From assembly GCF_003334765.1 (NCBI RefSeq), contig NZ_QOWT01000077.1: a stretch of DNA of 1,647 bases, one strand, 5' to 3'. The notes under the pieces were generated by a model. It saw only the letters and a list, made by a program, of their open reading frames with translations. It made no database searches and was not told the origin of the DNA. The position numbers were made by a program, and so were the translations under genes. Of this stretch, positions 1 through 1,478 are shown one piece after another (the stretch's first letter is position 1; every line of letters begins with the position of its first letter). The stretch comes from Escherichia coli. GTDB taxonomy: Bacteria > Pseudomonadota > Gammaproteobacteria > Enterobacterales > Enterobacteriaceae.

Positions 1-77
1 ACCAACCGCATGGCTGCCTGTTCCGTGCAAATGGGCTTTGCAGGGGGCTGGCGCGGTTCCTGGCGACCTGAAAGCCC
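1..77. repeat. Terminal direct repeat, copy 1 (identical to 1571-1647); circular-closure overlap
   Basis: Base-by-base identity of 1-77 with 1571-1647 (77/77). The repeat sits exactly at both window ends, the signature of a circular molecule written linearly with a k-mer overlap. Implied unit length is 1570 bp. Confidence 0.9.
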
Positions 78-264: not shown

Positions 265-328
265 TGATCCCGCTCGCCGCAAGTCGATGACCGAGCGTAG
301 CGAGCGAATCGACGAGGAAGCGGAAGAG
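265..328 (-). other. ColE1/pMB1-like block downstream of bom (candidate single-strand initiation / primosome-assembly-like site)
   Basis: The minus strand reads CTCTTCCGCTTCCTCG ... CTCGCTACGCTCGGTC ... GCGGCGAGCGGGATCA. From memory this resembles pBR322/pUC sequence between bom and ori (CTCTTCCGCTTCCTCGCTCACTGACTCGCTGCGCTCGGTCGTTCGGCTGCGGCGAGCGGTATCA), with a 16-bp identical run and roughly 80-85% identity over about 60 bp. It contains a CGCTCG/CGAGCG stem. The functional label is inference. Confidence 0.5.
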
Positions 329-364
329 AACCGGAAGCCACATTGAGCACTTACGCACTGATGC

Positions 365-389
365 GGGGTGTCGGGGTGAAGCCCTGACC
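365..389. repeat. Left arm of 25-bp inverted repeat (inverted partial copy of the bom arm)
   Basis: GGGGTGTCGGGGTGAAGCCCTGACC is the reverse complement of 613-637 at 24 of 25 positions (mismatch at 377/625). The two arms are separated by 223 bp. Confidence 0.9.
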
Positions 390-394
390 AAGTG

Positions 395-432
395 GTAATC
401 GTATCGGCGTGCATGCGCGGTTATACGATTAC
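395..432. repeat. Hairpin-forming inverted repeat (10-bp perfect stems GTAATCGTAT / ATACGATTAC, 18-nt loop containing GCATGC)
   Basis: 395-404 is the exact reverse complement of 423-432. It lies between the left IR arm and the tandem repeats. Confidence 0.8.
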
Positions 433-539
433 ACATCCTGTCCCGATTTCTGAGGCGTTTTAACGGTGAACGGACGGCAAAAACACGATGGAGCTGTTGA
501 ACGTGAAAACCACGAAATCTGGCAAAAATCACGGCTGGC

Positions 540-731: not shown

Positions 732-781
732 CCTGTCGCATCCAGGATGAAACAACGTTGTCGCATCCTGGATGCGACAAC
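731..781. promoter_or_regulatory. Operator/iteron-like repeats: 25-bp perfect palindrome (757-781) plus degenerate upstream copy (734-755), each centred on a CCWGG site
   Basis: 757-781 GTTGTCGCATCCTGGATGCGACAAC has perfect 12-bp arms around a central T. 734-755 TGTCGCATCCAGGATGAAACAA repeats the left arm and core 25 bp upstream. Half-site TGTCGCATCC occurs at 734-743 and 759-768, and inverted at 771-780. It sits immediately upstream of the candidate rep promoter. Confidence 0.5.
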
Positions 782-1343: not shown

Positions 1344-1478
1344 GCTAGCGGCAGGCGGACAATCAGGGGCTACGTGTTAACGTTCTGACCATGATTGTCT
1401 ATCCTGCATTGCTCTTTTGCCGCCTCAAAATCCTTTGCGTGTTTTTGCTCCCCGTTCTCCAGAAAAAACCGAGCCGCC

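Follow-up and report, generated by a model that had tools for sequence, protein, structure and literature searches.

Plasmid identity and gene content

The window, by which is meant the whole stretch of Escherichia coli DNA that was analysed (1,647 nt), begins and ends with the same sequence. A repeat search shows that positions 1–77 (+ strand) are identical to positions 1571–1647 (77 nt, 100%, spacing 1570), and this terminal redundancy identifies the window as a circle of 1570 bp in linearised form. End-to-end matches are found with hundreds of circular E. coli plasmids of 1549–1570 bp, at 98.5–98.8% identity, and pKL1 (NC_002145, 1549 bp, replicon type Col(MG828)) is among them. The window is a complete circular plasmid of ∼1570 bp that belongs to the pKL1/Col(MG828) family. 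It has a perfect 21-bp tandem duplication (GCGAGGCTTGCATAGGAGTAA, twice) at 538–579, directly beside a ColE1-type oriT; pKL1 has one copy of this unit, and the second copy accounts for the difference between 1570 and 1549 bp. Of 5,426 complete E. coli genomes, 293 (5.4%) have a plasmid that covers at least 80% of the window, and pKL1-type plasmids are also found in Klebsiella, Salmonella and Shigella. Identity with pBuzz was considered and ruled out, pBuzz being a 1982-bp rolling-circle plasmid.

The gene repA (867–1343, + strand) encodes a helix-turn-helix replication protein of 158 amino acids (Pfam HTH_36, 3.5e-8, and a weak RepL match) that is 100% identical to the protein encoded by the pKL1 coding sequence. 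No NCBIfam profile scores above its cut-off for RepA. The open reading frames listed for the window include no convincing gene besides repA and encode no relaxase, and an Rfam search of the window returned sub-threshold noise only. The window thus has the composition of a pOriT, i.e. oriT present and relaxase gene absent, with three oriT homologues. PLSDB/MOB-suite typing classes pKL1 and most of its relatives as mobilizable despite the absence of a relaxase gene. Among E. coli plasmids that bear an oriT, ∼88% have one, and a few have up to five (Ares-Arroyo et al., 2023).

Occurrence of the nick core motif

The octamer YATCCTGY is found exactly twice in the window, both times on the + strand, as CATCCTGT at 434–441 (site A) and as TATCCTGC at 1400–1407 (site B). 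A preliminary description of the sequence had placed the motif at these two positions and had likened it to the nick core of the MOBP-class oriTs for which RP4 is the paradigm, and it is correct on both counts. The expected number is 0.14, and two or more occurrences were seen in 1 of 200 dinucleotide-preserving shuffles. The hexamer ATCCTG occurs further at 743–748 (− strand) and 765–770 (+ strand), within palindromes upstream of rep, as the same description had also observed. These palindromes (734–781) consist of inverted and direct repeats with CATCC(A/T)GGATG. Their copies of the hexamer read CATCCTGG, which does not fit YATCCTGY, and are situated within the stem, not downstream of a palindrome. 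The palindromes are nested (TGTCGCATCCAGGATG... and GTTGTCGCATCCTGGATGCGACAAC) and are the source of the extra ATCCTG matches. They are probably the RepA operator and not nick sites.

The preliminary description had further stated that neither octamer has an adjacent inverted repeat. This is wrong, as inverted repeats are present directly upstream of both, with arms at 395–413 and 414–432 for site A and at 1358–1368 and 1389–1399 for site B. Stems were compared by folding each variant separately, upstream of its core. Folded as single-stranded DNA, the site A hairpin has a dG of about −11.4 (z −2.7 versus shuffled sequence) and the site B hairpin a dG of −12.6 (z −3.7), with none of 200 shuffles as good as the latter. 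The end of the site A stem (C432) is 8 nt before the predicted nick, a distance shared by each of the seven I-complex-type variants. The site B stem end (C1399) is 7 nt before the predicted nick, a distance found in five of six IncX-type variants; the sixth (10 nt) is the degraded copy that the IncF plasmid L006 carries as an insert. The RP4 sequence, folded likewise, shows 8 nt from stem end to nick; this RP4 oriT sequence was confirmed by a 100% match in the traJ–traK interval of IncP-1 plasmids. Both sites therefore show the two architectural signatures of the MOBP class, a YATCCTG|Y core and an inverted repeat that ends ∼8 nt 5′ of the nick.

Site A and the I-complex oriT

Site A lies within a segment (364–449, + strand) that is 91.9% identical over 86 nt to the IncK plasmid pCT (L001:3985–4070). 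In pCT, which has a MOBP relaxase and an MPF_I transfer system, the matching stretch is intergenic and directly upstream of a nikA-like mobA gene and the relaxase gene. A 101-nt query (window 380–480) matches 2,537 plasmids, of which ∼1,509 are conjugative. Two more I-complex plasmids match site A at 81–83%, each beside nikA/mobA and the relaxase gene, and in one of them, L009, the element is found upstream of genes annotated as 'IncI1-type NikA / NikB'. Plasmids pCT and L009, the latter with its annotated IncI1-type nikA/nikB, served as the I-complex references. Site A is thus homologous to a stretch immediately upstream of nikA–nikB. It has the character of an I-complex oriT of the IncK/pCT type (R64 family) and, with no adjoining nikA or nikB, is an orphan copy.

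The segment shares its parts with the I-complex oriTs (R64/IncI1, IncK pCT and IncB/O, which are served by NikA–NikB): the distal hairpin, the inverted repeat, the 8-nt spacer and the nick region. The distal element is a GC-rich hairpin motif, GGGGTGTCGGGGyGAAGCCCTGACC (365–393, + strand), that also forms a 29-nt inverted repeat, 93% complementary, with positions 609–637. This motif is common to all copies of the I-complex oriT, to the bom of a ColE1-like plasmid (L011 3001–3028) and to an IncX1 plasmid (L007 5529–5553). The hairpin proper spans 395–432 (+ strand), with a stem of 15 pairs closed by G395–C432. Its nick-proximal arm (414–432) would correspond to the NikA-binding 'repeat A' of R64-type oriTs. 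The nick region, ACATCCTG|TCCCG (433–445, + strand), contains the octamer, and the nick is predicted between G440 and T441 on the basis of the MOBP consensus. None of the 12 I-complex-type copies found departs from CACATCCTGTCC, and the entire 13-nt nick region is identical in 10 of the 12; the remaining two (L006 and L018) read TCCTG.

In PMC4743918, Furuya and Komano (1997) are cited for the R64 oriT core needed for transfer, which consists of the nick region and repeat A at a precise distance. Window positions 414–445 are identical to pCT over 32 nt, and these take in the nick-proximal arm, the 8-nt spacer and the CATCCTG|T core with five more bases, that is, both parts of the core and the distance between them. 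Outside this block the site departs from its relatives. The stem has two pairs fewer than that of pCT (15 versus 17) as well as internal mismatches, and its dG is −11.3 compared with −13.4. On the 3′ side of TCCCG the window has the sequence of the small-plasmid type (ATTTCTGAGG) and not that of the conjugative-plasmid type (TTTTTCAGGC).

Site B and the IncX oriT

A 107-nt query around site B matches 103 conjugative plasmids. The representatives that were examined are IncX4 plasmids (MOBP, MPF_T), and each record is matched in two places. The element in the window (1357–1417, + strand) shows 85% identity with IncX4 plasmids over its 61 nt and has the features of an orphan IncX4-type oriT; where IncX4 reads GGACAATCATGGATAAAATGTTAACATTTTGACCATGATTGTCTATCCTGCATTG, site B reads GGACAATCAGGGGCTACGTGTTAACGTTCTGACCATGATTGTCTATCCTGCATTG. 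References for the comparison were IncX4 and IncX3 plasmids. IncX4 plasmid L008 has two inverted copies of the element. One (1421–1475, − strand) is ∼50–100 nt upstream of ddp1–taxC, and the other (26068–26128, + strand) is beside the replication genes. The 10-kb IncX4 locus, searched alone, has no long inverted repeat because the second copy lies outside it, and the copy was found in the full plasmid. A pair of oriTs, the first close to taxC and the second close to the rep gene, is typical of conjugative IncX plasmids (PMC3402527). The arrangement in L008 matches this description, and site B is homologous to the element present there as two inverted copies.

The site B hairpin (1358–1399, + strand; outer pair G1358–C1399) has GTTAAC at its centre. 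It is followed by the nick region TATCCTG|CATTG (1400–1411, + strand), which contains the octamer. Two considerations place the predicted nick between G1406 and C1407: the MOBP consensus, and the extent of the IncX4 repeat, whose two copies cease to match each other 5 nt past this point. Positions 1386–1411 of the window are identical to both IncX4 copies over 26 nt, which comprise the nick-proximal arm (1386–1399) and the nick region. The sequence TATCCTGCAT is invariant in all IncX-type copies. It is present also in IncX3 plasmid L019, where it comes after a different hairpin, 34 nt upstream of ddp1–mobP1.

Compared with the IncX oriTs alpha and beta (R6K is the paradigm; Ddp1/TaxA–TaxC are the proteins involved), site B has in common the GTTAAC-centred hairpin and TATCCTG|CATTG, and with IncX4 it also shares an upstream motif, GAGCnnGCGGCAGGC. 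The window differs from IncX plasmids in having one copy and not two inverted ones, and in having no taxA or taxC gene. It differs from IncX4 in a diverged distal arm and loop, and the ∼21-nt spacer upstream of the hairpin is absent. Sequence on the 3′ side of the site B nick is closer to IncX1 than to IncX4.

A ColE1-type oriT and other shared non-coding regions

On the − strand, and hence oriented opposite to sites A and B, positions 574–636 form a third oriT, of the ColE1 bom type. Its 63 nt are 96.8% identical to the ColE1-like plasmid L011 (3001–3063), where the matching region adjoins MobC/MbeB/MbeD and rop; the homology is thus to a bom beside mob genes. Approximately 4,406 mobilizable plasmids match this region. 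A separate stretch of the window (270–334) is 79% identical to L011 3149–3213 and is collinear with the bom match. It resembles the primosome-assembly-site region of pBR322, which is located between ori and bom. The two ColE1-like pieces flank the I-complex oriT.

Two further non-coding stretches are shared with IncX plasmids. Over 217 nt, positions 110–325 have 81% identity (E 5e-52) with a non-coding stretch upstream of rep in IncX4 (L008 28285–28499). The arc that runs from 1407 through the junction of the circle to 390 (1407–1570 and 1–390) is collinear with an IncX1 plasmid (L007 5001–5554). To judge from these alignments, much of the backbone outside rep may come from an IncX origin/long-inverted-repeat region.

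Comparison with RP4

The RP4/RK2 (IncP-1 alpha) oriT resembles the sites in the window in its YATCCTG|Y core, and its inverted repeat ends 8 nt before the nick, as at site A. In RP4, as in the parental plasmids of sites A and B, the relaxase operon diverges from the oriT; the accessory and relaxase genes of pCT, IncX3, IncX4 and RP4 form an operon that is transcribed divergently, and the nicked strand reads in the direction away from it. In contrast, the arm to which the accessory protein binds is unrelated. The RP4-type oriT locus (L010) shows no BLAST similarity to the window, and the RP4 oriT has just 9 nt in common with it (CTATCCTGC), around site B; homology that includes the TraJ-bound arm, which would be specific to IncP, is not seen. 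The specificity of RP4 is conferred by the accessory protein TraJ at the proximal arm. As there is no similarity to RP4 beyond the 9 nt, the two sites are assigned, within the MOBP class, to the I-complex and IncX lineages and not to IncP. On this assignment RP4 TraI and IncP helper plasmids would be the wrong partners for a test of nicking or mobilization, and the relevant ones would be I-complex (NikA/NikB) and IncX4 (Ddp1/TaxA–TaxC) plasmids.

Variation among Col(MG828) plasmids

Eight Col(MG828) relatives were compared with the window. The site A core, CACATCCTGTCC, is identical in seven of them and absent from L016. Six of the seven relatives with site A also share the next 14 nt of the window, with CGATTTCTG inside; L018 has CCTG in place of CCCG. 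All eight have the site B core, GTCTATCCTGCATTGCTC, without change. Upstream of these cores, four or more versions of the hairpin exist for site A and three or more for site B, and every version is self-complementary. In L017 and L018, for example, the site B stems differ from that of the window yet are still self-complementary.

Covariation was assessed at site A. MAFFT placed gaps inside the stems, and only the seven outer pairs could be counted. Over these pairs, and with just seven related sequences as the basis of the statistics, 98% of cells are paired, and four pairs have changed on both sides. The covariation score was reached by none of 500 shuffles, and when the partner is shifted by 1–3 columns, pairing falls to 25–43%. 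A fixed nick core next to a hairpin that can be swapped and keeps its pairing is what would be expected from selection on a working oriT with helper-specific recognition, and not from chance or neutral decay.

Several members and relatives of the family have features of their own. L016 (NZ_CP082106.1, 1535 bp) has a RepA of identical type and site B, without CATCCTGT, i.e. without site A. Site A is therefore dispensable for survival of the plasmid, and individual oriTs can be lost. L013 (NZ_CP100493.1) has a third YATCCTGY element on the − strand at ∼958, in which a hairpin (GGGCAAAGG...CGTTTGCCC) is followed by TATCCTGCATCG. This extra element is ∼90% identical over 72 nt to IncX3, to a region directly upstream of the ddp1–mobP1 relaxase operon (L019). 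L017 (NZ_CP028575.2), which has variant hairpins at both A and B, and the IncX3 NDM-5 plasmid L019 (NZ_CP028577.1) come from the same strain, WCHEC005784; this co-residence is a single anecdotal case, and the L017 site B hairpin is not of the IncX3 type. The IncF plasmid p253 (L006, NZ_MT648288.1, 150 kb) has at ∼3650–5310 pKL1-like fragments with sites A and B, beside IS26.

Alternative explanations

The preliminary description preferred the view that a short consensus was met by chance and is without functional meaning. The motif does have only eight positions, two of which are degenerate, ATCCTG is also present in the unrelated palindromes of the probable rep operator, and shuffled sequence can produce a pair of hits, in the 1 of 200 cases given above. 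Chance is rejected because at both sites a hairpin at the canonical spacing (7–8 nt) is combined with 60–86 nt of homology to the oriT regions of conjugative plasmids, and because the nick cores remain unchanged across diverged relatives while the hairpins vary in a compensatory manner. Identity across the nick is exact over 32 nt at site A and 26 nt at site B. The homology results count as having refuted chance already, and the probability that remains for it is negligible. It is also highly improbable that the sites are targets of the TraI of IncP plasmids (RP4/R751) and that the plasmid is mobilized by IncP helpers. The fit of the nick core to the IncP consensus, the presence of CTATCCTGC at site B and the 8-nt distance between hairpin and nick at site A would all agree with such a role. 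However, outside those 9 nt there is no similarity to the RP4 oriT, and the proximal-arm sequences are unrelated to that of RP4.

It may also be asked whether the hairpin at site B is mainly a repA terminator, or a replication or priming signal derived from an IncX origin, with its likeness to an oriT incidental. The hairpin begins 15 nt past the repA stop codon, one of the two IncX4 copies adjoins replication genes, and the window shares with IncX plasmids further non-coding stretches near rep genes (110–325 with IncX4, 1407 to 390 with IncX1). On the other hand, the second IncX4 copy and the IncX3 copy are directly upstream of the relaxase operon, and what is invariant is the nick core and not just the stem. 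A repA terminator as the main role of site B was rejected, as no terminator-like site is predicted there on the + strand and the stem is not followed by a run of T residues. The explanation as a whole is very unlikely, and the hairpin may have a dual role besides that of an oriT. More weight, if still the status of an unlikely explanation, is given to the possibility that sites A and B are genuine oriT homologues, acquired by recombination with conjugative plasmids, that have since decayed to relics without useful nicking or transfer. The distal arm and loop diverge from those of the donor plasmids, site A has been lost in L016, and hairpins of the L013 type have imperfect stems. Against decay, the nick-proximal arm and nick region are exactly as in conjugative plasmids. 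The invariance of the nick cores amid turnover of the neighbouring sequence, together with pairing that is kept through double changes, indicates purifying selection. In addition, a plasmid of only 1.57 kb needs a means of spread if it is to occur in 5.4% of complete E. coli genomes and in other genera.

The reading that is considered likely, with good though not full confidence, is that this is a 1570-bp rep-only plasmid with three orphan oriTs, and that its two YATCCTGY octamers are the putative nick cores of an I-complex-type and an IncX4-type oriT. The point made in the preliminary description that the motifs would matter if more than one relaxase family could nick the plasmid is well taken.

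Proposed mobilization in trans and precedents

A plasmid of this kind, without transfer genes, probably hitches on several different helper plasmids, as far as can be judged from its oriT homologies. In the mechanism proposed, a co-resident I-complex or IncX4 plasmid would supply in trans both the accessory protein (NikA, or Ddp1/TaxA) and the MOBP relaxase (NikB, or TaxC). The accessory protein would bind the nick-proximal arm of the hairpin, and the relaxase would cut the + strand after G440 or G1406 and remain on the 5′ end. The type IV secretion system of the helper would then export the cut strand, and the relaxase would rejoin it on the return of the nick core and hairpin. A third route may be open via the ColE1-type oriT (574–636, opposite strand) and ColE1-like Mob proteins. 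The efficiency of mobilization, especially that of transfer termination, may be reduced because of the mismatches of site A relative to pCT and the differences of the site B distal arm and loop from IncX4.

There are precedents for such a mechanism. One is pBuzz, a plasmid with a pair of oriTs and without a relaxase, which a B/O plasmid mobilizes efficiently (PMC9282650; PMC11389934). Plasmid pEC156 is mobilized by R64drd11 via an R64-type oriT, and transfer is abolished when its oriTs are deleted; pEC156 is mobilized by F as well (PMC4743918). Like pBuzz (Moran and Hall, 2019), pCERC7 and pEC156, the window is very small, encodes no relaxase and has more than one oriT, one of them of I-complex type. 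Opposite oriT orientations, seen in those plasmids, are seen here between site A and the ColE1-type oriT. The replicon is different: the window has a helix-turn-helix RepA of the pKL1 type, pBuzz (1982 bp) is of the rolling-circle kind, and that of pEC156 is ColE1-like. A further difference is that the window has three oriTs from three lineages (I-complex, IncX4 and ColE1) within 1.57 kb. A literature search found no paper on nicking or mobilization, or on the oriT content, of pKL1-family plasmids.

A broader proposal, which is tentative and somewhat doubtful, is that members of the pKL1 family are 'oriT collectors', in which at least approximately one-fifth of 1.5 kb is an oriT array, the nick cores stay invariant, and the hairpins next to them, as modules of specificity, are exchanged between I-complex and IncX subtypes. 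Perhaps the relaxase would catalyse this exchange by recombination at the nick while the plasmid shares a cell with different helpers. Lineages might in this way become tuned to the conjugative plasmids that circulate in the host population, with up to three helpers used at once. The arc from 1407 to 390 would then be a captured piece of the IncX long inverted repeat. The divergent blocks have conserved sequence on both sides at site A, while at site B of L018 the divergent block is within the stem. Because of these block boundaries the breakpoints are not placeable at the nick, and the idea of recombination at the nick site is therefore speculative.

Significance

A motif that had been set aside as probably fortuitous has become a specific claim, that of exact IncK/I-complex and IncX4 recognition and nick regions, to which a ColE1-type oriT is added. 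The concept of orphan and multiple oriTs is already established, and the advance is in this respect incremental. Typing of these plasmids as mobilizable by MOB-suite also predates the present analysis; the three-lineage oriT array and the modular exchange of hairpins add interest. Annotation pipelines should label such plasmids as multi-helper mobilizable.

The carrier is among the smallest and commonest of E. coli plasmids, with a presence in ∼5% of complete genomes. Plasmids of the I-complex and IncX groups matter for resistance, as major carriers of ESBL, mcr-1 and NDM genes. With a nick core that is fixed and a hairpin that is exchangeable, the family may offer a compact natural example for the study of relaxase and accessory-protein specificity. 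Its members could possibly be used as natural reporters of the conjugative systems active in a strain. If the interpretation is true, it would explain how a plasmid without transfer genes has become so widespread.
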